From: an uncultured Clostridia bacterium
GTDB taxonomy: Bacteria > Bacillota > Clostridia > Oscillospirales > Ruminococcaceae
Assembly (NCBI GenBank): GCA_945910815.1
Contig: CAMDZD010000006.1
Location: 10,785 to 74,784, forward strand
Length of the DNA: 64,000 nt
Direction of reading: 5' to 3'
Under the pieces are notes generated by a model. It searched no databases and had not been told where the DNA came from. It was given only the letters and a program-made list of their open reading frames with translations. Of this stretch, positions 2,499-14,689 are shown one piece after another. The translations under genes and the position numbers were made by a program. Every line of letters begins with the position of its first letter. The first letter of the stretch is position 1.

Positions 2499-3946
2499 TG
2501 TCAACAGTATCAATAAAAAAAGCAACTCTGATAAATGCTGTATCAAAATACGGCAAAGTTTTGATGAACCTTGTTTTTACAGCAGTTTTATCCAGATTGT
2601 TATCACCGAATGATTACGGCGTTGTTGCCATAGTTACAGTATTTACATCCTTTTTTAATATTCTTGCGGATATGGGACTTGGAAGTGCTGTGGTTCAGAA
2701 TAAGGAACTTACAGATGATGAAGTCAATGATATATTTTCATATTCATGCTATCAGGGAATAATGCTTGCAGTTTTTTTCTGTATACTCTCTGTTCCGATT
2801 TCATTTTTCTACAAAAATAAGGTATATCTTTCAATATGCAGTATATTGTCTGTTTCAGTGCTGTTTAATACTCTGAATATGATTCCGAATGCTGTTCTGA
2901 TGAAAAACAAGAAGTTTGTGACAGTTGCCATAAGAAATATTATTTCTACGCTTGTAACGGGCGGAGTAACAATTTTACTCGCTTTTATAGGATTCAAGTA
3001 TTATGCACTTGTTCTTCAGTCAGTAACTTCAGCATTTATTCTGTTTTTATGGAATATGAAAAGCGTTAATTTAAAATTTCATTTAAAATACAATAAGTTA
3101 AGCATAAAGAAAGTTATGGGATTCAGTACATACCAGTTTGGCTATAATCTTGTGAATTATTTTTCAAGAAATACTGATAATCTGTTGATTGGCAAGTTAA
3201 TGGGAAATGAATCTCTTGCATATTACAGCAAGGGATATACACTTATGCTTTATCCTGTTCAGAATCTTACATTCGTTATATCTCCGGTTCTTCACCCGAT
3301 TTTGTCAGACCATCAGAATGATAAAAACTATATATATAATAAATATATAAAAGTTACTAAGCTTTTATCATTGTTAGGTGTTTTTGTTTCTGCGTTCTGC
3401 TTTTTCTCATCACGAGAAATTGTGCTGATAGTATTTGGAAATCAGTGGGAAGCATCTGTTCTTAGCTTCCGGATACTAAGTATATCAGTATGGTCTCAGA
3501 TGGTATCATCAACAGCCGGTTCAGTATTCCAGAGCCTTGGAAAAACAAAACTGATGTTCAATTCGGGAATTATTCAGATGATAGTTACAGTTTCAATGAT
3601 AATTATCGGCTGTCTTTTCGGAAAAATTGAATATGTTGCATTTTTTGTAACCTTCGGACTTATTGCAAAATTTTTTATTGAATTTTTCTTTCTGATAAAA
3701 AAAGCATTTGAATTTAAATTCACTTACTTTCTTAAAAACTTTTTGCCGGACTTGTTGATTTTTGTAGTATTAATAGCTGTTTCTGTACCTGGTATTTATT
3801 ATATAAATATTTCTAATATTGTAATCTCAGCTTTAGTCAAGCTTGCAATTATATCAGTTGTTTACATTATAATGCTGTTAATTCTGAAACAAACTAATTA
3901 TCTGTTTGTCATTTTGCCTAAAAAGTTAAGAAAACATAAAGTTTGA
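2498..3946 (+). CDS. wzx: Wzx-type oligosaccharide flippase
   Basis: LSRLLSPNDYGVVA..ADMGLGSAVVQ motif, 12-14 TM segments, DNLLIGK..LAYYS motif. Confidence 0.9.
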   Translation: MSTVSIKKATLINAVSKYGKVLMNLVFTAVLSRLLSPNDYGVVAIVTVFTSFFNILADMGLGSAVVQNKELTDDEVNDIFSYSCYQGIMLAVFFCILSVPISFFYKNKVYLSICSILSVSVLFNTLNMIPNAVLMKNKKFVTVAIRNIISTLVTGGVTILLAFIGFKYYALVLQSVTSAFILFLWNMKSVNLKFHLKYNKLSIKKVMGFSTYQFGYNLVNYFSRNTDNLLIGKLMGNESLAYYSKGYTLMLYPVQNLTFVISPVLHPILSDHQNDKNYIYNKYIKVTKLLSLLGVFVSAFCFFSSREIVLIVFGNQWEASVLSFRILSISVWSQMVSSTAGSVFQSLGKTKLMFNSGIIQMIVTVSMIIIGCLFGKIEYVAFFVTFGLIAKFFIEFFFLIKKAFEFKFTYFLKNFLPDLLIFVVLIAVSVPGIYYINISNIVISALVKLAIISVVYIIMLLILKQTNYLFVILPKKLRKHKV

Positions 3947-3959
3947 TTGGAGTATTATC

Positions 3960-4421
3960 ATGTCAGAAATTATGAAAAAATTAAAAATAAAAAGATGCGT
4001 GTCTTGCAGTAAGGGTTCAGAGTTTCAGTATGACGGAAATTTGAATTTAAATTCGGGTTGCTGTATAAGAGTAAGGAAGAATGCAAAGCTTAAGATTGGA
4101 AAAAATGTTTTTTTTAATAATAATTGCGTTCTGACATGCAGAGAATCAATCACAATAGGAAATAATGTTATATTCGGCCCCAATGTTTTGATATTTGATA
4201 ATGACCACGACTACAAGGATAACGATTTTATGCATAAATTTGTAACAAAGCCTATTATTATAGAGGATAATGTCTGGATAGGAGGAAATGTAACTATTCT
4301 GAAGGGTACTCATATATGTAAAGGTGCTGTAATAGGTGCAGGCTGTGTTGTCAGAGGGCGTATTGAACCTGATACCGTTATGTATACATCAAAGGATTCG
4401 TTTAAATTTAAATCAAAGTAA
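3960..4421 (+). CDS. Hexapeptide-repeat (LbH) O-acetyltransferase
   Basis: IGKNVFF, IGNNVIFGPNV, DNDHD, IEDNVWIG..V.ILKG..I.KGAVIGAG repeats. Confidence 0.85.
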   Translation: MSEIMKKLKIKRCVSCSKGSEFQYDGNLNLNSGCCIRVRKNAKLKIGKNVFFNNNCVLTCRESITIGNNVIFGPNVLIFDNDHDYKDNDFMHKFVTKPIIIEDNVWIGGNVTILKGTHICKGAVIGAGCVVRGRIEPDTVMYTSKDSFKFKSK

Positions 4422-4494: not shown

Positions 4495-6654
4495 TTAAAG
4501 TTTTGTTATAACCTTTGCGAGATACTGCTGAATAGCAAGTGCATCATTTGCGTTAAGACCGTTTCCGGAGTTATGAACGTCACCGTTAATTATACCCTGT
4601 TCGGTAAGTTTATTTTCTTCGGGATTTCCGACATATGAAGCAATTGCGACAACATCGGCAATATCAATATTTCTGTCATTGTTTGCATCTCCGGCAAGTT
4701 CAGATACAGCATTTTCATCAGAAATACTGTCTATTTTCCATATTCCGTCATTGAGAATGACATTAAGTGTCATATAATCAGTAGCTCCGTAATTGTCGTA
4801 TTCTGCAACTATGTCAAAGGAAGTATCTTTTATGTTTTTGATTTCCGGAGTTTTATCCGCCCACGCAAATCCGCAACCTCTTGCGGAGGTTTTTCCATAC
4901 AGTACGCCTTTATAGTCGATATATCGGGGGTCATCAGTACCGATAATGCCGGAATAGCGTTTTGCAATCATCTTGTCAGTGAGATTTTTCTGCATAAATT
5001 CTCTGACCGTTGCCGTACTTACAAATATTGATTTTACTACCTGTGCAAATTCATTTCCGTTTTCATCGGTGAAAGCAGTGGATTTATCAAAGTCAACGAA
5101 ACTTCCTCCGAGCCATTCAATATCATTTAAAGCTGTGAGGAGTTCCTTAGCCCTTGCAATATAAGCGGATTCTTCACCTATTGAATTGATTTTCCATGAG
5201 CCTTTGTCAAGAATTACATTAAGCGTTATATAGTCAACAGCACCGTAATTGTCATATTCTGCGACTATATCAAAAGAAGTATCTGTGATGTTTTTAATTT
5301 CGGGAGCTTTTGAAGTCCAGGCAAATCCGCAACCTCTTGCGGAGGTTTTTCCGTAAAGTACGCCTTTATAGTCGATGTATCTGGGGTCATTTGTATCGAG
5401 TATTCCCGAATATCTGTAATTTATGAATTTTTTCGTGAGAACAGATTCCATATATTCACGCAAATCGGAAGTAGTGGAAAACTGTGTTTTAGCTACCTTT
5501 GCGAACTCCTCACCATTATCATTTGTGAAAGCAGTAGTCATATCAAAGGGAATATTTCCACCGCCTATCTTGTCGATGTAATCCAATGCACCCATAAGAC
5601 TGGAGGCTTTCTGACTATAATCAATTTCTGAAATTGAATTGATTTTCCATGAGCCATTGTCAAGAATTACATTAAGCGTCATATAGTCAACAGCACCGTA
5701 ATTGTCATATTCTGCGACTATATCAAAAGAAGTATCTGTGATGTTTTTAATTTCGGGAGCTTTTGAAGTCCAGGCAAATCCGCAACCTCTTGCGGAGGTT
5801 TTTCCGTAAAGTACGCCTTTATAGTCGATGTATCTGGGGTCATTTGTATCGAGTATTCCCGAATATCTGTAATTTATGAATTTTTTCGTGAGAACAGATT
5901 CCATATATTCACGCAAATCGGAAGTAGTGGAAAACTGTGTTTTAGCTACCTTTGCGAACTCCTCACCATTATCATTTGTGAAAGCAGTAGTCATATCAAA
6001 GGGAATATTTCCACCGCCTATCTTGTCGATGTAATCCAATGCACCCATAAGACTGGAGGCTTTCTGACTATAATCAATTTCTGAAATTGAATTGATTTTC
6101 CATGAGCCATTGTCAAGAATTACATTAAGCGTCATATAGTCAACAGCACCGTAATTGTCATATTCTGCGACTATATCAAAAGAAGTATCTGTGATGTTTT
6201 TAATTTCGGGAGCTTTTGAAGTCCAGGCAAATCCGCAACCTCTTGCGGAGGTTTTTCCGTAAAGTACGCCTTTATAGTCGATGTATCTGGGGTCATTTGT
6301 ATCGAGTATTCCCGAATATCTGTAATTTATGAATTTTTTCGTGAGAACAGATTCCATATATTCACGCAAATCGGAAGTAGTGGAAAACTGTGTTTTAGCT
6401 ACCTTTGCGAACTCCTCACCATTATCATTTGTGAAAGCAGTAGTCATATCAAAGGGAATATTTCCACCGCCTATCTTGTCGATGTAATCCAATGCACCCA
6501 TAAGACTGGAAGCTTTCTGCTGATAATCAACAGCTGTTTTTTCAGTTGAAACTGATACCGGCTGAAATTCAACAGCAGATACTGCCGGAACATTCAGACT
6601 CAGAGTCATCATCAGAGCTGATGTGAAGATACAAAAATTTTTGAATTTTTTCAT
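4495..6654 (-). CDS. Secreted protein with 4 tandem IseA-like (DL-endopeptidase inhibitor-like) domains and a C-terminal dockerin
   Basis: Start refined to ATG 6654 (RBS GAAAGGAAG; signal peptide MKKFKN..PAVSA). Four ~151-aa repeats; C-terminal GDANNDRNIDIADVV...GDVHNSGNGLNANDALAIQQYL dockerin. The IseA resemblance is a by-eye alignment to B. subtilis IseA. Confidence 0.75.
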   Translation of the reverse strand: MKKFKNFCIFTSALMMTLSLNVPAVSAVEFQPVSVSTEKTAVDYQQKASSLMGALDYIDKIGGGNIPFDMTTAFTNDNGEEFAKVAKTQFSTTSDLREYMESVLTKKFINYRYSGILDTNDPRYIDYKGVLYGKTSARGCGFAWTSKAPEIKNITDTSFDIVAEYDNYGAVDYMTLNVILDNGSWKINSISEIDYSQKASSLMGALDYIDKIGGGNIPFDMTTAFTNDNGEEFAKVAKTQFSTTSDLREYMESVLTKKFINYRYSGILDTNDPRYIDYKGVLYGKTSARGCGFAWTSKAPEIKNITDTSFDIVAEYDNYGAVDYMTLNVILDNGSWKINSISEIDYSQKASSLMGALDYIDKIGGGNIPFDMTTAFTNDNGEEFAKVAKTQFSTTSDLREYMESVLTKKFINYRYSGILDTNDPRYIDYKGVLYGKTSARGCGFAWTSKAPEIKNITDTSFDIVAEYDNYGAVDYITLNVILDKGSWKINSIGEESAYIARAKELLTALNDIEWLGGSFVDFDKSTAFTDENGNEFAQVVKSIFVSTATVREFMQKNLTDKMIAKRYSGIIGTDDPRYIDYKGVLYGKTSARGCGFAWADKTPEIKNIKDTSFDIVAEYDNYGATDYMTLNVILNDGIWKIDSISDENAVSELAGDANNDRNIDIADVVAIASYVGNPEENKLTEQGIINGDVHNSGNGLNANDALAIQQYLAKVITKL
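5181..6530. repeat. Three near-identical 453-bp intragenic tandem repeats, plus a diverged fourth copy at ~4728-5180
   Basis: TTGAATTGATTTTCCATGAG recurs at 5181, 5634 and 6087 (period 453). Units differ at only a few positions near their ends. Confidence 0.97.
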
Positions 6655-6668
6655 AATAAAACTTCCTT

Positions 6669-8633
6669 TCATCGTTGAAATTGACATATATCAAGCGTTT
6701 CACAGTTTTCTATACTGAATGATATAAACTGTTTTCCACAAATTATATATATATAATCATCTATATATAAAGCCCTGTTCATTCCATAACAAAATTCGTT
6801 TTCATAGTCCGAAACATTTCCGATGTAATTGAACGAATTGTTTTCAAAGGAATAAAGTTCATATACGAGTGTCACAAATTCATCAGAATAATTCTGCAAA
6901 TAATATGGTATGCCTATAATATTTTTTTCCGGAACGGTCAGCATAGACTGACTGTCCTCAAGTGCAGGAGAGCCTGACATTGCCAAATCATCAGACTTGT
7001 CTGTAAGCTCTGCTGTGATATTTATATCTTTATTTTCAATCATAGAAATTTTAAAGATATTTTGATTCTGCAATGAATTAAAACTTAAAATAAGACTGTC
7101 ATTCCATCTCTGCATATAACCGCCGTAGATAAGCTTTAAATCATCATTTAATAAAGGATTTTCGGGGTTGCTTAAATCTATTGCGAAAGTGGGTTCGGAC
7201 TGTTCAGAATATGTGAAAGCATATGCAGTATCTTCAAAAAATCTGAAATCATTTATATCCTGCTGAATATTGTTGAAATCATCAAGCAAGCCGACTGTAT
7301 TCATATCCGAATCAAGTACATATAAGGCATATTTTGTATTTACAATCTGAGTATCGGGAATATACATTACTGCAATTGCAAAATAGTCATTGTATTCATT
7401 CATAGACATCTGACTTATGGGTATTCCTTTTACATTTGCGACTGACTGCTGAATAATATTTCCGTCCGAAAGTGAAAATTTAAGTATATCTGTATTTTCA
7501 GTATATGCATTTGTATAGTTGCTTACTGTTACATAAAGATTATTTTCACTGCAGTAAACAAATTCGGCAGATTTCGCAAAGGCTTTTATATCTGTTTCAA
7601 TAAATATATCGCCGTTGCGGTCAGTATTGATATTTCCGTAATCCTGATTGATTTTTAATGCTCCTGCTGTTGTAAATCCCGTATTCAGTTCCTCGGAATT
7701 AAGTTCATGCAAATCTGACGGAATATATATATTTTCGGGTTCGGGATAATATTTTTCACCGTTTATATAATATTCGGGGAGATATTTTTCATAATCCTCT
7801 GAATTTATTTCTGAGGAAAGGTCTTTTGTTTCTGAGGTTATAATATAGATATAATCATCGTTGATTTGTATATCGCTGAAATTTCCGTTTTGAGAATATT
7901 CTCCGAGATATGCAAGCACAGGCTTTTCATTCTGATAGGCTATATTATATGCTAGAATGGTTGTTACAGTGTTTCTGTCATTTATAATATTTTCGGATAT
8001 TACAATAAGCTTATTGTCTGTTATATACATTCCGCACACTTCTGACTGTAAAATTTCGGAAAAATCTGCAATTATATCCATTGAATACCTATAAAGAAAT
8101 TCTCCGTTTTTAACACTTGCTATATTTACATATGAACTGTCACCGTCAACGCTGAATATTGATTTACCGTCTGTTACGGCTCTATTGAGTTTCTTAGTGC
8201 CCAGCTGATTATATGTTTCAGAAGTACTTTCCTGTTCGGCATTGTAAAAATTATTGTAATTCTTTGAAACTTCAGAGAATATTTCATAAACTTCGTCATA
8301 GTTTTCAGCACCTTTAATAGAAGAAAGACTGTTTTGCGAATTTTTATTAATATCCGTGAATCCTGCTGTATCTGCTGATTTTGAAAAGCTTTCGGAAGTT
8401 TTTTCATATGCGGGAGCTTTTTTTTCTATTGCATAAATTCCCACTGTACTGAACATCGCACACACTGCAAGCCCCACAACAATTTTTATATACTGATTTC
8501 TGAAAGATTTTCCGGAATATTTAACATTTTGCTGTCTTTTTGATTTAATTATCAGGTCAATATTTTCGGGGCGGAGCTGTACAGGAATTTCTTCTGATTC
8601 AAGTATTTTTTTAATTTTCTCTCTGTCGTTCAT
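6669..8633 (-). CDS. Single-TM protein with extracytoplasmic beta-propeller domain; putative anti-sigma factor
   Basis: Start refined to ATG 8633 (RBS AAAGGAGA). Short cytoplasmic N-terminus, one TM (IVVGLAVCAMFSTVGIYAI), Beta_propel-type motifs (RAVTDGKSIF, ISQMSMNEYNDYFAIA, IDLSNPENP, RALYIDDYIY). Directly downstream of an ECF sigma gene. Confidence 0.7.
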   Translation of the reverse strand: MNDREKIKKILESEEIPVQLRPENIDLIIKSKRQQNVKYSGKSFRNQYIKIVVGLAVCAMFSTVGIYAIEKKAPAYEKTSESFSKSADTAGFTDINKNSQNSLSSIKGAENYDEVYEIFSEVSKNYNNFYNAEQESTSETYNQLGTKKLNRAVTDGKSIFSVDGDSSYVNIASVKNGEFLYRYSMDIIADFSEILQSEVCGMYITDNKLIVISENIINDRNTVTTILAYNIAYQNEKPVLAYLGEYSQNGNFSDIQINDDYIYIITSETKDLSSEINSEDYEKYLPEYYINGEKYYPEPENIYIPSDLHELNSEELNTGFTTAGALKINQDYGNINTDRNGDIFIETDIKAFAKSAEFVYCSENNLYVTVSNYTNAYTENTDILKFSLSDGNIIQQSVANVKGIPISQMSMNEYNDYFAIAVMYIPDTQIVNTKYALYVLDSDMNTVGLLDDFNNIQQDINDFRFFEDTAYAFTYSEQSEPTFAIDLSNPENPLLNDDLKLIYGGYMQRWNDSLILSFNSLQNQNIFKISMIENKDINITAELTDKSDDLAMSGSPALEDSQSMLTVPEKNIIGIPYYLQNYSDEFVTLVYELYSFENNSFNYIGNVSDYENEFCYGMNRALYIDDYIYIICGKQFISFSIENCETLDICQFQR

Positions 8634-8652
8634 AAAAAAAATTCTCCTTTCA

Positions 8653-9204
8653 TCAGTCTGATTCTTCAAGATTCAGCCTTAATTTTTTCTTTATTCTCAT
8701 AAGCCTTGACCGTACTGTTGCCGGATTTATTCTGCATATTTTAGCAATTTCAAGGCTTGTATATCCGTTTATCACTGACATTGAAAGAATCATTTTTGAT
8801 TTTTCGTCAAGACTTTCGAGAGCTATTTTCAAATCATGATATTCATAGTTGAAATTCTCGGATTCTGAAACAGTTTCCTCATATTCGCATGTATTATCGT
8901 TTAAATATTCTTTCTGTTTTTTCTTTATCTTAGCGGAAAGAATTTTCATAATCCAGCTTCTGAAAGCCTTTTCATTGCGGAGATTTTTAATGGATTCAAA
9001 GGCGTCTGCAACGGCATCGCTGACCGCATCGCTTGCATCGTGACTGTTCCGGAGATTATATCTTGCTATGTGATACATGTCTTTATATACAAGGGAATAA
9101 AGGCGTGAAAATGCATCAGTATCGCCTGCAACTGCAAGCCTCACATCTTTTTCAAAACTGCTGTCATCGTCATTTATATAGGATACTGCCGAAATATCAT
9201 TCAC
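8653..9204 (-). CDS. ECF RNA polymerase sigma factor (sigma-70 family)
   Basis: Region 2 (DAFSRLY, DASDAVSDA, FRSWIMKIL) and region 4 (GYTSLEIAKI..ATVRSRLMR) motifs; GTG start with RBS AAAGGGGG. Confidence 0.93.
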   Translation of the reverse strand: MNDISAVSYINDDDSSFEKDVRLAVAGDTDAFSRLYSLVYKDMYHIARYNLRNSHDASDAVSDAVADAFESIKNLRNEKAFRSWIMKILSAKIKKKQKEYLNDNTCEYEETVSESENFNYEYHDLKIALESLDEKSKMILSMSVINGYTSLEIAKICRINPATVRSRLMRIKKKLRLNLEESD

Positions 9205-9317: not shown

Positions 9318-9349
9318 AAAAAACGGGCGGATTTTTTAAAAATCCGCCC
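9318..9349 (-). terminator. Intrinsic terminator after the ANTAR gene
   Basis: Stem GGGCGGATTT/AAATCCGCCC followed on the minus strand by a T-tract. Confidence 0.75.
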
Positions 9350-9352
9350 TTA

Positions 9353-9922
9353 TTATCTTTCGTATCTTGAAAGTATATTCATAGCAACTTCTTTTCTTGT
9401 CTGACGGCTGTCCATAGCCTGTTTTTCTATATAGCGATGTGCCTGAGGTTCGGTAAGCTTCAAGTATTCCATTAATGCACATTTTGCACGGTTTATGAGC
9501 CTTAATTCGTCAATCTTCGTTAAAAGCTTGACATTCTCCCTCTTAAGTCCGAGCATTCTTGCTCTTGTAGCCTGAACGAGTTTTAATGACTGATGAAATA
9601 CTGAACGGTTAAGGGGTTTTGAAACTACGCATACACCAAATTCCCCGACTTTATCGGAAACATCATCTGCAATTTCCGCACGGCATATAAGAATTATTCC
9701 GGCTGTTGAGGATTCGGACATCATAACGGCAAGTTCGTGACCAAATTCGTCCGATACAGGAGTATTTATAATGATTATTTCGTATTCTGTCGTATCTATC
9801 AGACGACGAGCCTCACTTCCACTGTTGATTGCTGTAATTTGTGAATATCCGGCATTTTTCAGTAATTGTGCAACGGCATCAATTCCCTTTTCCGAACCTG
9901 AAACTATTAATGCACGTTCCAT
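9353..9922 (-). CDS. ANTAR-domain RNA-binding antiterminator with pseudo-receiver domain (AmiR/NasT-like)
   Basis: C-terminal INRAKCALM..LTEPQAHRYIEKQAMDSRQTRKEVA ANTAR motif. The receiver fold has SG in place of the acidic pair and N53 at the phosphoacceptor position; KP is retained. Confidence 0.9.
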   Translation of the reverse strand: MERALIVSGSEKGIDAVAQLLKNAGYSQITAINSGSEARRLIDTTEYEIIIINTPVSDEFGHELAVMMSESSTAGIILICRAEIADDVSDKVGEFGVCVVSKPLNRSVFHQSLKLVQATRARMLGLKRENVKLLTKIDELRLINRAKCALMEYLKLTEPQAHRYIEKQAMDSRQTRKEVAMNILSRYER

Positions 9923-9947
9923 AAAATAGTGCCTCCGTTTTTATTGA

Positions 9948-11195
9948 TTAGATGAATGGAAAATATCTTTTTTCTTCAAAATTATCTTTTGAGATTGTAT
10001 ATTCACGCCATGTATGCGAGATGTTATTCAGAATAAGAGTTCTTGTTTTTTCGTTTAAAACTGATTTTATAAAGTCGCTTTTGCAGGCGATTTCATAAGC
10101 TTCCGCAAGAGATAAGGGAAGTTTTATTTTTGTTTCGGATTCCGGAGGGAGTTCCTCTTTGTTTTTAATTCCCTCAAAGCCTGCGGAAAGTATCAGATTA
10201 AATGCAATATAGGGATTGCATGTTGCATCGGCTGAACGTACCTCAATAGTAGGTGATTCGCCGACAGCGTTTGAAATTCTTATAAGAGGCGAATTATTGC
10301 TGAAACTCCAGTTTATGTACTGCGGAGCATATCCGACTCCGAAACGCTTGTATGAATTTGTTGAGGGATTAAGAAAAGCAGTCATTTCGGGTATTCTGTT
10401 AAGTATTCCCGCTATGAAATAATTTCCCTCGTCAGAACCGATAATTTCAGTACCGTTTTTCTTTATGCCGAGGCATATATTCAGGATACTTCCGGGCTGA
10501 TTGCCGAGAGGTCTCGGCATAAATGATGCATAAAGACCGTTCTGCGATGCTATTGACTTTACGACTGTTTTATAGTGAACCATATTGTCCGCAGCGGTAA
10601 CAGGTTCGCTTTTTTTGAAGTCAATTTCATTCTGTCCCCAGCCATGCTTATGACATGAGCTTTTTGGATTAAGTCCCATTTCCTCAAGTGAAAGACAGAT
10701 TTCACGTCTTGTATTTTCGCACTTGTCAAGAGGTGCAACATCAAGATAACCGCCATGGTCATGCGGAATTTTAGTCGGTTCGCCGTTGTCATCAAGATTG
10801 AAAAGATAAAATTCGCATTTGGTAGCAAATTCGCATGAATATCCTTCCGAATTGAGTGACATTATTTTATTGTGGAGCTGTTTTCTCAAATCTCCGGAAT
10901 ATTCCGAACCGTCAGCGTTTTGTATATTGCAGAAAAATCTGACTACTCTGCCTGACTTTGGTCTCCAGGGGAGTACGGAAAGGGTTGAAATATCCGGAAC
11001 AAGCAACAAGTCCGAACATTCTCCGGTTATTCCGGAAGCGTCAAATGATATGCCGTGTTTGAAAGCTCTCGGGAGTTCCTTCGGCATAATTGCGATATTT
11101 TTCAGATTTCCGAAAATGTCGCAGAATGTGAGACGTATGAATTTAACATCATTTTCCTCTACAAAATTCAGTACTTCAATAGGTGAAAAGCTCAT
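9948..11195 (-). CDS. Glutamine synthetase type I homologue with degenerate active site (probable pseudoenzyme)
   Basis: Aligns end to end with GSI-alpha (VKFIRLTFCDIFG, FDASG, GGYLDVAP, GQNEIDF, FMPRP, NSYKR, EVRSAD..NPY), but several metal and catalytic residues are substituted (see findings). Confidence 0.85.
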   Translation of the reverse strand: MSFSPIEVLNFVEENDVKFIRLTFCDIFGNLKNIAIMPKELPRAFKHGISFDASGITGECSDLLLVPDISTLSVLPWRPKSGRVVRFFCNIQNADGSEYSGDLRKQLHNKIMSLNSEGYSCEFATKCEFYLFNLDDNGEPTKIPHDHGGYLDVAPLDKCENTRREICLSLEEMGLNPKSSCHKHGWGQNEIDFKKSEPVTAADNMVHYKTVVKSIASQNGLYASFMPRPLGNQPGSILNICLGIKKNGTEIIGSDEGNYFIAGILNRIPEMTAFLNPSTNSYKRFGVGYAPQYINWSFSNNSPLIRISNAVGESPTIEVRSADATCNPYIAFNLILSAGFEGIKNKEELPPESETKIKLPLSLAEAYEIACKSDFIKSVLNEKTRTLILNNISHTWREYTISKDNFEEKRYFPFI

Positions 11196-11223: not shown

Positions 11224-12027
11224 TTACAGAACTTTTTTTCTTAGTCTTTTAAGCTCCGAAAGGCTAAGGCAGTTCGGAAAGCTTTCATCATCTATTCTTG
11301 CGATACATTCATCAATATCTACCCAGCAGACTTCTGAAACTTCCGACTTATCAATTTTAATGTTTTTTATGTCAACGGGCTTTGTGTATATAAATACTGA
11401 TGCAAATTCCCTGTCAGTACGTTTTCCGAGTCTTGTATTGCATATCTTGAGTGACTTTTCCATTCCGATAAATTCAAGATTTCTGGGGTCGGCAGTAATT
11501 CCGAGTTCTTCCTGAAGCTCCCTTACTGCTGAATATCTTGATTCCTCACCGGCTGATGTGTGGCCTGCTGATGATACGTCATAGAAATCCGGAAAGAATA
11601 ATTTTTCCTTTGAACGTTTCTGCAAAAGTACGTATATTGACATATCAACACGGCGGATAATCCATATATGCGATGTAAGATGACCGTCTCCGTCACGATG
11701 TACGAGTGAACGTGGTTTTATACGGTTTGTAACATGTTCGTTTTCGTCTACTATATTCAGAAATTCCTCGTCATATACTGAAAAAGAAAAATTACTGTTT
11801 TTCTCCGAAACTTTATAGAATATATCAAGTATGCCGTCAATAGTGCTGTTGCTTATATTCTCATTGGAAATATATATATCAGCATTAAGTGATTTTATTT
11901 CATTAAGACAATCATAGAGTGCGTCAAGATTTTTTCCGTAATATTCGGGAAATCCAAGTTTTTCTGCAAGTTCCTTATGCAGTTCCGCCGGTGAAAAGCG
12001 TCTGCTCAGAAAAATTTCAGTATCCAT
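11224..12027 (-). CDS. Barstar-like RNase inhibitor fused to a Nudix/IDI-type hydrolase
   Basis: N-terminal LHKELAEKLGFPEYYGKNLDALYDCL (barstar signature); C-terminal LLQKRS..K..FP..YDVSSAGH..AGEE...AVRELQEELGI (Nudix box). Confidence 0.85.
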   Translation of the reverse strand: MDTEIFLSRRFSPAELHKELAEKLGFPEYYGKNLDALYDCLNEIKSLNADIYISNENISNSTIDGILDIFYKVSEKNSNFSFSVYDEEFLNIVDENEHVTNRIKPRSLVHRDGDGHLTSHIWIIRRVDMSIYVLLQKRSKEKLFFPDFYDVSSAGHTSAGEESRYSAVRELQEELGITADPRNLEFIGMEKSLKICNTRLGKRTDREFASVFIYTKPVDIKNIKIDKSEVSEVCWVDIDECIARIDDESFPNCLSLSELKRLRKKVL

Positions 12028-12053: not shown

Positions 12054-12656
12054 TTAATATAGCTGTTCAAAAGTCTGATAATGGTCATTTGTATAGAAAA
12101 TAAGACCGTCATTTGAAAATATAATGCGTTCAGCACCTCTGAAACCGCCGTTATAGTTCACATCACATTCTGTCCATATTCTTCCTTCGGAATCGGGGAG
12201 AAGTCCCTCATAGTTTCCGAATCTGTCTCCGCCTATGCTCATACCGTCAGCGACTTCCCATAAATTGCCCTTTTTGCTGTCCCAGCCGAGTGCAATTGCA
12301 TCATCTTTTTTGATGAAATTATGTGGAAGTGTTCCGAATGTATGTATATATTCCGCAACATCTTCGGGAGTGGTATAGCTACCGGATTCGAGTATAATAT
12401 TATTGTCTGCCGTTATTGGTTCTGTTTCCGTTTCAGAATTATAATAACTGGTATCGGGTTTAGCGGAAGTGATAATTTCAGTTTCTTCGGAATATTCTTC
12501 CGTATCATTATCAGACTGGGGAATTTCTGAAATTTCACTTTCTGAAACAATGCTTTCTTCCGGAATAAATTCAAATGCATTGTCTTTAAGTACGATTCCG
12601 AGAACTATCAGAATTATCATACCGGCTATACTTAAAAATATTTTTTTGTTTTTCAA
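12054..12656 (-). CDS. Membrane-anchored barnase-like guanyl-specific ribonuclease
   Basis: Start refined to TTG 12656 (RBS AAAGGAGA). N-terminal TM, acidic S/E/T linker, barnase-like domain (LPHNFIKK, SIGGDRFGN, WTECDVNY, GFRGAERI, DHYQTF) with catalytic Glu and His retained. Confidence 0.92.
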   Translation of the reverse strand: MKNKKIFLSIAGMIILIVLGIVLKDNAFEFIPEESIVSESEISEIPQSDNDTEEYSEETEIITSAKPDTSYYNSETETEPITADNNIILESGSYTTPEDVAEYIHTFGTLPHNFIKKDDAIALGWDSKKGNLWEVADGMSIGGDRFGNYEGLLPDSEGRIWTECDVNYNGGFRGAERIIFSNDGLIFYTNDHYQTFEQLY

Positions 12657-12682
12657 GTCAAATCTCCTTTCCTGCACAATCA

Positions 12683-12711
12683 ATTATATACCCACTTTAA
12701 TGAAATGTCAA
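12683..12711 (-). promoter_or_regulatory. Consensus sigma-A promoter for the RNase / barstar-Nudix / GS-like / ANTAR operon
   Basis: Minus strand TTGACA (12711-12706) - 17 bp - TATAAT (12688-12683). Confidence 0.85.
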
Positions 12712-12722
12712 TCATTATTGCG

Positions 12723-12757
12723 AAAAAAATCGGGACAGATTAGCAAATCCGTCCCGA
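12723..12757 (-). terminator. Intrinsic terminator after amt-PII
   Basis: Minus strand TCGGGACGGATT-TGCT-AATCTGTCCCGA-TTTTTTT. Confidence 0.85.
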
Positions 12758-14518: not shown

Positions 14519-14589
14519 AAAAAATCACCCTTTGCTTACTGATTTTGTCAAAACTGCTTTGAATTATTTTTAAGGAGGTACCTTCCCTG

Positions 14590-14648
14590 AAAATAATAAA
14601 AAGATGCCGAAAAGAAGTTTTCTTCAAACCCTTTTCAGCACCTTTGCT
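14590..14648 (-). promoter_or_regulatory. Leader attenuator: ANTAR-type hexaloop hairpin overlapping an intrinsic terminator
   Basis: Minus strand AGC-AAAGGT-GCT hairpin (14648-14637). Its loop and 3' side form the 5' arm of a ~20-bp stem (14645-14600) followed by TTTTTATTATTTT. Confidence 0.75.
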
Positions 14649-14660
14649 GTCTATGGTTAT

Positions 14661-14689
14661 ATTATATTCCCAAAAGGAAAAAAAGTCAA
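14661..14689 (-). promoter_or_regulatory. Sigma-A promoter of amt-PII
   Basis: Minus strand TTGACT (14689-14684) - 17 bp - TATAAT (14666-14661). Confidence 0.85.

Follow-up and report, generated by a model that had tools for sequence, protein, structure and literature searches.

What can a glutamine synthetase (GS) without its catalytic residues do for the cell, and why should its gene stand directly in front of that of an RNA-binding antiterminator? These questions are raised by a gene pair in a stretch of 64,000 nucleotides (the window) from an uncultured Clostridia bacterium of the Ruminococcaceae (GenBank assembly GCA_945910815.1, contig CAMDZD010000006.1, positions 10,785 to 74,784 of the forward strand). 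The first gene encodes a GS-like protein of 415 residues and the second, on the same strand after a gap of 25 nucleotides, a NitR-type regulator with a C-terminal ANTAR domain. In the reading favoured here, to which a probability of about one half is given, the GS-like protein is a pseudoenzyme that would sense 2-oxoglutarate (2-OG) rather than glutamine and control the NitR-type antiterminator, the two genes forming a ruminococcal version of the glnA-nitR module. The pair would then probably be the nitrogen switch of the cell. A dead GS as partner of an ANTAR protein was not found described in the literature searched, a coverage that left out most subscription journals.

A glutamine synthetase fold with a dismantled active site

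The reading frame of the GS-like gene is open across all 415 codons, and the product has the GS fold according to its Pfam matches (Gln-synt_N PF03951, 72.5 bits; Gln-synt_C PF00120, 238 bits). HMMER aligned it to the Bacillus subtilis enzyme (PDB 4lnf) with an E-value of 7e-86. In this alignment three metal ligands are exchanged, namely E132 for K126 (TKCEF vs GPEPEF), E189 for K183 (CHKH vs HHEV) and H245 for N239 (GSILN vs GSGMH). The glutamate of the Glu flap, E304, is deleted (GY-AP vs GYEAP) and the catalytic R316 is N301 (NNSP vs NRSP); E134, E196, R298, R321, E333 and R335 are retained. The six metal ligands E132, E134, E189, E196, H245 and E333 accordingly read K, E, K, E, N and E, three of the six being kept. 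The original prediction, made from the letters of the window and their open reading frames, had listed these substitutions and retained residues, and the alignment reproduced every one of them.

Several changes go beyond that list. A deletion of four residues takes out FVRI and with it R62, the arginine of glutamine feedback. An H195N exchange is present as well; the GS of Escherichia coli reads GQNE at this position, an asparagine there is thus harmless, and H195N was rejected as an inactivating change. In the ATP site, the ribose-binding glutamate and the adenine-stacking aromatic residue (E184 and Y201) are both replaced by lysine, the adenine-contacting serine by glycine and the equivalent of R331 by threonine (residue roles according to PMC10799026). 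The NCBIfam model for GlnA, TIGR00653, gives 295.6 bits, below its equivalog cut-off of 429.15, and with an incomplete set of metal ligands, no flap glutamate and no R316 the protein is not expected to qualify as GlnA (EC 6.3.1.2). In a representative library, the GS-like query also matched two giant proteins at about 30% identity, P0121 (4424 residues, 11 stretches) and P0184 (2757 residues, 6 stretches).

Strain-specific decay is excluded by the relatives of the locus, whose names point to Ruminococcus and the closest of which is 72% identical. The substitutions are common to 81 orthologues translated from genome loci. Position 132 is K in 63, R in 14 and E in 4 of them (K or R in 77/81), position 189 is K in 73 and T in 6 (K or R in 74/81), and position 245 is S in 50, H in 11 and N in 9. 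The flap glutamate is missing from all 81 and the R62 loop from 80, and the column of R316 varies within the clade. For pairs with dS between 0.1 and 1.5, the median ratio of non-synonymous to synonymous substitution rates (dN/dS) is 0.053 in the GS-like gene, taken over 125 pairs, against 0.093 in the ANTAR gene. Stops and frameshifts are absent from all 81 GS-like orthologues. The gene is therefore predicted to be a conserved pseudoenzyme, not a decaying gene. The further suggestion that the lysines replace the charges of the missing metals agrees with the K or R residues at both positions in the clade of the window; it does not extend to other degenerate lineages, which carry S, D, A, F, V, I or L.

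Pairing with a NitR-type antiterminator

By its domains the regulator of 189 residues is of the AmiR/NasT type, with a C-terminal ANTAR domain (PF03861, 59.1 bits, cut-off 27.3) and a receiver-like domain (Response_reg, 29.2 bits, slightly under the Pfam cut-off of 30.2) that has neither the phosphoacceptor aspartate nor the acidic pair. As the original prediction had stated, N53 occupies the phosphoacceptor position and the acidic pair is lacking. S-G-S stands in its place; K102-P103 is retained. Among 80 orthologues of the regulator, the phosphoacceptor column reads N in 59, D in 9 and other residues in 12, and the acidic pair occurs in none. The same holds for the NitR-like proteins examined, which lack the acidic pair throughout and usually carry N at the phosphoacceptor, whether they stand beside an intact GS, beside a degenerate one or alone. 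A EutV-type control from the same sample (L136) has the normal DD...D...K set. The genome of the window holds no other ANTAR gene.

The adjacency of the two genes, which had been proposed as a check, is constant. An ANTAR gene follows the GS-like gene within 10-60 nucleotides in 80/80 related loci, and an ANTAR gene for 182-191 residues follows in 6/6 distant representatives with 40-54% identity. Three of these six have intact active sites, including the GS of Enterocloster bolteae, and three have scrambled ones; the neighbours of the six pairs encode GSIII (type III GS), Amt-PII, glutamate synthase (GOGAT), AsnA, CTP synthase or carbamoyl phosphate synthetase (CPSase). In 61 genomes, sampled evenly across 60 genera of the window's family, there were 35 GS-I-type genes, spread over 33 genomes. 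An ANTAR gene comes directly after 33 of these 35, and the two that lack it encode canonical GS-I proteins of 476-486 residues with the highest Pfam scores. GSIII is present in 57 of the 61 genomes. The genome of the window likewise has a separate GS, as had been anticipated: the second of its two GS-family genes encodes a full-length type III protein of 699 residues that can be aligned end to end with GSIII of Bacteroides fragilis (E-value 1e-191) and is the predicted working enzyme of this genome.

Loss of catalysis was not a single event in this family. Nine of the 33 ANTAR-linked GS-I-type genes encode every catalytic residue and 11 are changed in the flap only; the remaining 13, the window counted, have lost metal ligands in differing ways. 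A tree of 54 sequences, computed with the scored catalytic columns left out, implies at least eight changes between intact and degenerate states, at least six of them forced by strongly supported branches. Judged from this tree, the catalytic residues have been lost at least six to eight separate times in ANTAR-linked GS. Inside the clade of the window the loss is stepwise: the flap goes first, followed by E189K and then E132K/R, and H245 is replaced last.

The predicted targets of the regulator carry a characteristic leader. A genome scan for the canonical two-hairpin ANTAR element found the leaders of asnB and glnN and missed that of amt-glnK. Because the conserved element has one hexaloop hairpin, the genome was rescanned for terminators whose 5' arm is built from the loop and 3' stem of a single A-R-N-G-N-Y hexaloop hairpin. 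Among the non-coding matches in the genome, the first two places went to the leaders of glnN, which encodes GSIII, and of amt-glnK; the asnB leader, known from the two-hairpin scan, carries a hexaloop hairpin too. The 5' arm of the amt-glnK terminator is made from the 3' half of the hexaloop and the 3' stem of the hairpin (Table 1), and the two structures are therefore predicted to be mutually exclusive. With hairpin/terminator leaders before amt-glnK, glnN and asnB, the genome resembles known glnA-nitR systems. Other genera have matching elements in front of amt-glnK, glnN, GOGAT and GS-like genes and even before orphan nitR genes, with stems ACAGC/GCUGU, GAAC/GUUC or GGAC/GUUC and loops AAAGGC, AAAGGU, AAAGAC, AAGGGC, AAUGGC or AAGGAU. 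What is conserved is one AANGRY-loop hairpin overlapping a terminator; no second hairpin was found in the amt leaders. At gathering thresholds, Rfam gave no match in the whole window.

A fourth leader of this kind lies elsewhere in the same genome (contig C5, 34972-35006, minus strand), where a hairpin AAGC-AAAGGU-GCUU overlaps a terminator behind a TTGACA-17-TATAAT promoter. By eye only, it precedes a gene for a circularly permuted ATP-grasp protein and a gene for an alpha-E domain protein, which suggests that the NitR regulon may reach past the classical genes of nitrogen assimilation.

No attenuator leader precedes the GS-like gene of the window, only the 28-nucleotide gap after the barstar-NUDIX gene. 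Most loci of the Ruminococcus flavefaciens group have a plain promoter about 30-40 nucleotides upstream of the GS-like and nitR genes and no such leader, an arrangement that would suit a constitutively made sensor. There is no clean correspondence between the presence of a leader and an intact active site. In some genera (loci L084, at 3886-3975; L094; L103; L122; L059) the operon itself has a NitR-type hairpin/terminator leader, and such operons would be autoregulated.

The 2-oxoglutarate pocket and competing explanations

Two archaeal enzymes define the site at which archaeal GS-I-alpha binds 2-OG. In the GS of Methanothermococcus thermolithotrophicus (PDB 8ooq) it consists of F18', R20', R88', R174, R175 and S191 with a small residue at position 34 (A34) (PMC10799026), and in GlnA1 of Methanosarcina mazei (PDB 8s59) of F24, R26, R87, R172, R173 and S189 (PMC11957540). 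The B. subtilis enzyme is not competent for 2-OG, as Y20 and E36 clash with the ligand and T83 replaces the equivalent of R88 (PMC10799026). In the GS-like protein of the window, F19, R21, A35, R78, R163, R164 and S180 align with the M. mazei pocket (HMMER, E-value 2e-83), so that all seven residues of the archaeal-type site are present. Six of them are invariant in the 81 orthologues and A35 is kept in 78. Among 51 diverse ANTAR-linked proteins, F19, R78, R163 and R164 are found in all, S180 and R21 (as R or K) in 50, and position 35 is always A or S. The longest invariant run of the family alignment, C159-G174, matches helix 167-181 of M. mazei GlnA1, which moves when 2-OG binds.

The contrast with the catalytic site is best seen in 111 cluster representatives. 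F19, R78, R163, R164 and S180 are retained in 96-110 of them, R21 as R or K in 105 and A or S at position 35 in 100, whereas the catalytic positions (metal ligands, flap and active-site arginines) are retained in only 29-86, with E304, R316, H245, E132 and E333 in only 29-65. Because the pocket is invariant or nearly so and the catalytic positions vary, selection has maintained the 2-OG pocket throughout the loss of the catalytic site. This preservation is the strongest clue to the presumed ligand. The original prediction had named glutamine or glutamate, and this part of it finds no support. R62 and E304 lock glutamine into the feedback-inhibited enzyme of B. subtilis, and the absence of their equivalents abolishes glutamine inhibition in M. 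thermolithotrophicus (PMC10799026). Since both are deleted in the window, with much of the ATP site replaced and the 2-OG pocket intact, 2-OG is the more likely signal.

The following sequence of events can be proposed. When nitrogen is scarce, 2-OG would rise and bind between the subunits of the GS-like protein, changing its conformation or oligomeric state as in the GS of M. mazei. This change would free or activate the NitR dimer, which would stabilise the leader hairpin and block the terminator, so that the genes for the ammonium transporter, GSIII and asparagine synthetase are transcribed. With ample nitrogen, NitR would be kept inactive by the GS-like protein. Such a switch would follow the logic of AmiC-AmiR and NasS-NasT, the ligand being bound here by a dead enzyme.

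Parts of this scheme have known counterparts. Clostridium saccharobutylicum NCP262 has a glnA-nitR cluster in which NitR acts by antitermination on GS and GOGAT genes (Stutz et al., 2007, as summarised in PMC6316151), and in Clostridium thermocellum the type I-alpha GS gene Clo1313_2031 adjoins the ANTAR gene Clo1313_2030, in a genome with three GSIII genes (PMC4676874, PMC9888227). The window shares with these systems a GS-I-alpha gene followed by a gene for a receiver-like ANTAR protein of about 190 residues, the predicted antitermination of GS, GOGAT or ammonium-uptake genes under nitrogen limitation and, as in C. thermocellum, a type III GS alongside the type I gene. It differs in that the clostridial GlnA is treated as an enzyme, whereas the protein of the window has lost three metal ligands, the Glu flap, the R62 loop and the catalytic arginine, and in that the pair stands under a plain consensus promoter without an attenuator leader and thus lacks the nitrogen-regulated glnA of those systems. 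A role of GlnA as the sensor of NitR is not assigned in the glnA-nitR papers that could be searched. By its gene content, the pair is best described as a degenerate variant of the known clostridial module.

With AmiC-AmiR of Pseudomonas aeruginosa and NasS-NasT of Paracoccus denitrificans (PMC3795266), the pair shares an unphosphorylated pseudo-receiver ANTAR protein and an adjacent gene for a ligand-binding partner, a role that is proposed here for the GS-like protein. AmiC and NasS are amide and nitrate receptors with the fold of periplasmic binding proteins; here the partner would be a dead enzyme of a dodecamer-forming family, in a complex that is likewise proposed. All residues that contact 2-OG in the archaeal GS-I-alpha match, and the similarity to 8s59 is about equal to that to B. 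subtilis GS. The archaeal proteins are active enzymes turned on by 2-OG, in contrast to the protein of the window, which has no catalytic site and would have to pass any response to another protein. B. subtilis GS offers a precedent, as this GS-I-alpha passes the nitrogen status to TnrA and GlnR by protein contact, which is what is proposed for NitR. That enzyme, however, is catalytically active and signals through a glutamine-locked state (R62, E304) that the window protein cannot reach, and its targets bind DNA, whereas the proposed target here is an RNA-binding antiterminator.

Several observations weigh against control of NitR by a 2-OG-sensing pseudo-GS. Of 43 sampled genomes with an ANTAR gene, about 12 encode a NitR-like pseudo-receiver and lack any GS-I-type gene, and four partnerless NitR-like genes (L127, L128, L129 and L132) lie directly after the gene for the GXGXG subunit of GOGAT in GSIII-positive genomes. 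From these four lineages the GS-like partner seems to have disappeared entirely, and NitR can apparently work without one. Hidden, divergent GS-like genes upstream of the orphan ANTAR genes were considered and rejected, the genes there being purA, DUF3810, PPIase, Fe-ADH, EamA, GXGXG and EutP. The adjacency of the pair could accordingly be inherited operon ancestry and not a sign of interaction, with NitR acting independently and the GS-like protein addressing another target, e.g. GSIII, the Amt-GlnK fusion or GOGAT; the pair is often found within a few kilobases of glnN, amt and GOGAT genes. This explanation is unlikely, given that the spacing of 10-60 nucleotides persists over very deep divergence, even where all other neighbours change, and that every NitR is without a phosphorylation site and hence needs some partner. 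The apparent presence of one hairpin only is a further difficulty for the proposed RNA switch, as EutV requires two. A monomer model by AlphaFold2 (AF2) was of no help and no conclusion was drawn from it: built from a 17-sequence alignment, it was poor (mean pLDDT 62, pTM 0.71, below 50 in the core 127-238).

Other observations concern the nature of the ligand. The 2-OG pocket occurs in ANTAR-linked GS with intact active sites as well and may be an ancestral site of enzyme regulation. The amino-acid pocket is strictly conserved too, E134, E196, G241, R298 and R335 being invariant in the 81 orthologues and Y156 present in 77, and in Bacillus GS is an established glutamine-dependent regulator of transcription factors (PMC6316151). 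An active-site ligand is thus still conceivable, and the GS-like protein might gate NitR by sensing glutamine or glutamate through this remnant. With the two glutamine-locking residues deleted and the substrate-positioning metals largely unliganded, such sensing is distinctly unlikely. With its fold preserved and half of its active-site residues in place, the protein could alternatively be a ligase with an altered substrate, metal or chemistry that is co-transcribed with the regulator and does not act as its sensor. GS-like paralogues with new substrates are known, such as the gamma-glutamyl-polyamine synthetases, and the GGputSyn model gives 170 bits, far under its cut-off of 650. This is quite improbable, as neither metal site is intact, Arg316, the Glu flap and the residues touching the ribose and adenine of ATP have been replaced, and the substitutes vary among lineages (K, R, S, D, A, T, N, C, L, I), unlike what a new conserved chemistry would leave. 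Hardly credible, finally, is a functionless relic kept for the expression of nitR: the loss of catalytic residues and the position directly upstream of nitR would fit it, but the low dN/dS of the whole gene, the long invariant stretches, e.g. 159-174 over helix alpha-3, and the absence of stops and frameshifts speak for a protein under strong constraint.

Operon layout, neighbouring genes and meaning

In the window, the genes for the RNase, the barstar-NUDIX fusion, the GS-like protein and the ANTAR regulator are co-oriented with gaps of 25-28 nucleotides, and the promoter in front of them probably drives all four as one unit (Table 1). Among the 80 related loci, only the closest one (L004) has the same RNase and barstar-NUDIX neighbourhood; another (L007) has only a barstar-NUDIX-like match on the opposite strand. 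As they stand upstream of the pair only in the lineage of the window, these two genes are no part of a conserved module. The Amt-GlnK fusion is also found in several relatives, with 71-82% identity.

Table 1. Features of the GS-like/ANTAR locus and the adjacent amt-glnK unit, in window coordinates
Feature	Positions	Strand	Description and evidence
Intrinsic terminator after the ANTAR gene	9325..9349	minus	11-bp stem with 6 GC pairs; strong, ends the operon
NitR-type regulator, 189 aa	9353..9922	minus	Pseudo-receiver and C-terminal ANTAR RNA-binding domain; Pfam, alignment
GS-I-alpha-like protein, predicted pseudoenzyme, 415 aa	9948..11195	minus	Open reading frame, Pfam, HMMER alignments, NCBIfam score
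Barstar-NUDIX fusion	11224..12027	minus	Open reading frame, domain match
Barnase-like RNase	12054..12683	minus	N-terminal hydrophobic segment; open reading frame, domain match
Sigma-70 promoter	12683..12711	minus	TTGACA-17-TATAAT, 12/12 consensus match
Terminator of the Amt-GlnK unit	12730..12757	minus	
Amt-GlnK fusion, 580 aa	12776..14518	minus	Ammonium transporter and PII domain; domain match; predicted regulated target
Terminator in the amt-glnK leader	14600..14645	minus	-22.7 kcal/mol, z -5.6; U tract 14588-14599
Predicted NitR target hairpin in the amt-glnK leader	14636..14649	minus	CAGC-AAAGGU-GCUG, hexaloop A1 and G4; weak when alone, -5.5 kcal/mol
amt-glnK promoter	14661..14689	minus	TTGACT-17-TATAAT, 11/12 consensus match

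On the other side of the pair, the window encodes a secreted protein of 730 residues (4495-6687, minus strand) that contains four tandem repeats, nearly identical and about 150 residues long, and has, by eye, a dockerin-like C-terminus. Its gene lies downstream of genes for an ECF-type (extracytoplasmic function) sigma factor (8653-9204) and a single-pass membrane protein of 666 residues (6669-8669).

In many Clostridia of the gut, the rumen and industry, ammonium uptake, GS and GOGAT are under the control of NitR-type ANTAR proteins, which have neither a kinase nor a known sensor. If the neighbouring GS or GS-like protein is a sensor of 2-OG, the signal input that the NitR family has long lacked would be identified and it would become clear how these bacteria gauge their nitrogen status. 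A puzzling phenotype of C. thermocellum would also be accounted for: a paper of 2017 states in its title that deletion of the type I GS 'deregulates nitrogen metabolism', and nitrogen-assimilation genes were reportedly induced in spite of high glutamine, the outcome to be expected if a negative controller of NitR is lost. In a wider and more tentative form, clostridial ANTAR-linked GS-I-alpha proteins, active or dead, may all be 2-OG receptors that switch NitR directly, through assembly or a conformational change driven by 2-OG, with lineages relying on GSIII having repeatedly stripped the enzyme down to a sensor.

In hundreds of genomes these genes carry the annotation glutamine synthetase, and metabolic reconstructions of rumen and gut communities therefore arrive at inflated GS counts. 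For the evolution of the family, the scaffold of a dodecameric enzyme would have found a second use in an RNA switch, as the subunit that binds the ligand, and the ANTAR-linked proteins would document a stepwise path from enzyme to receptor once a second isoenzyme takes over catalysis.

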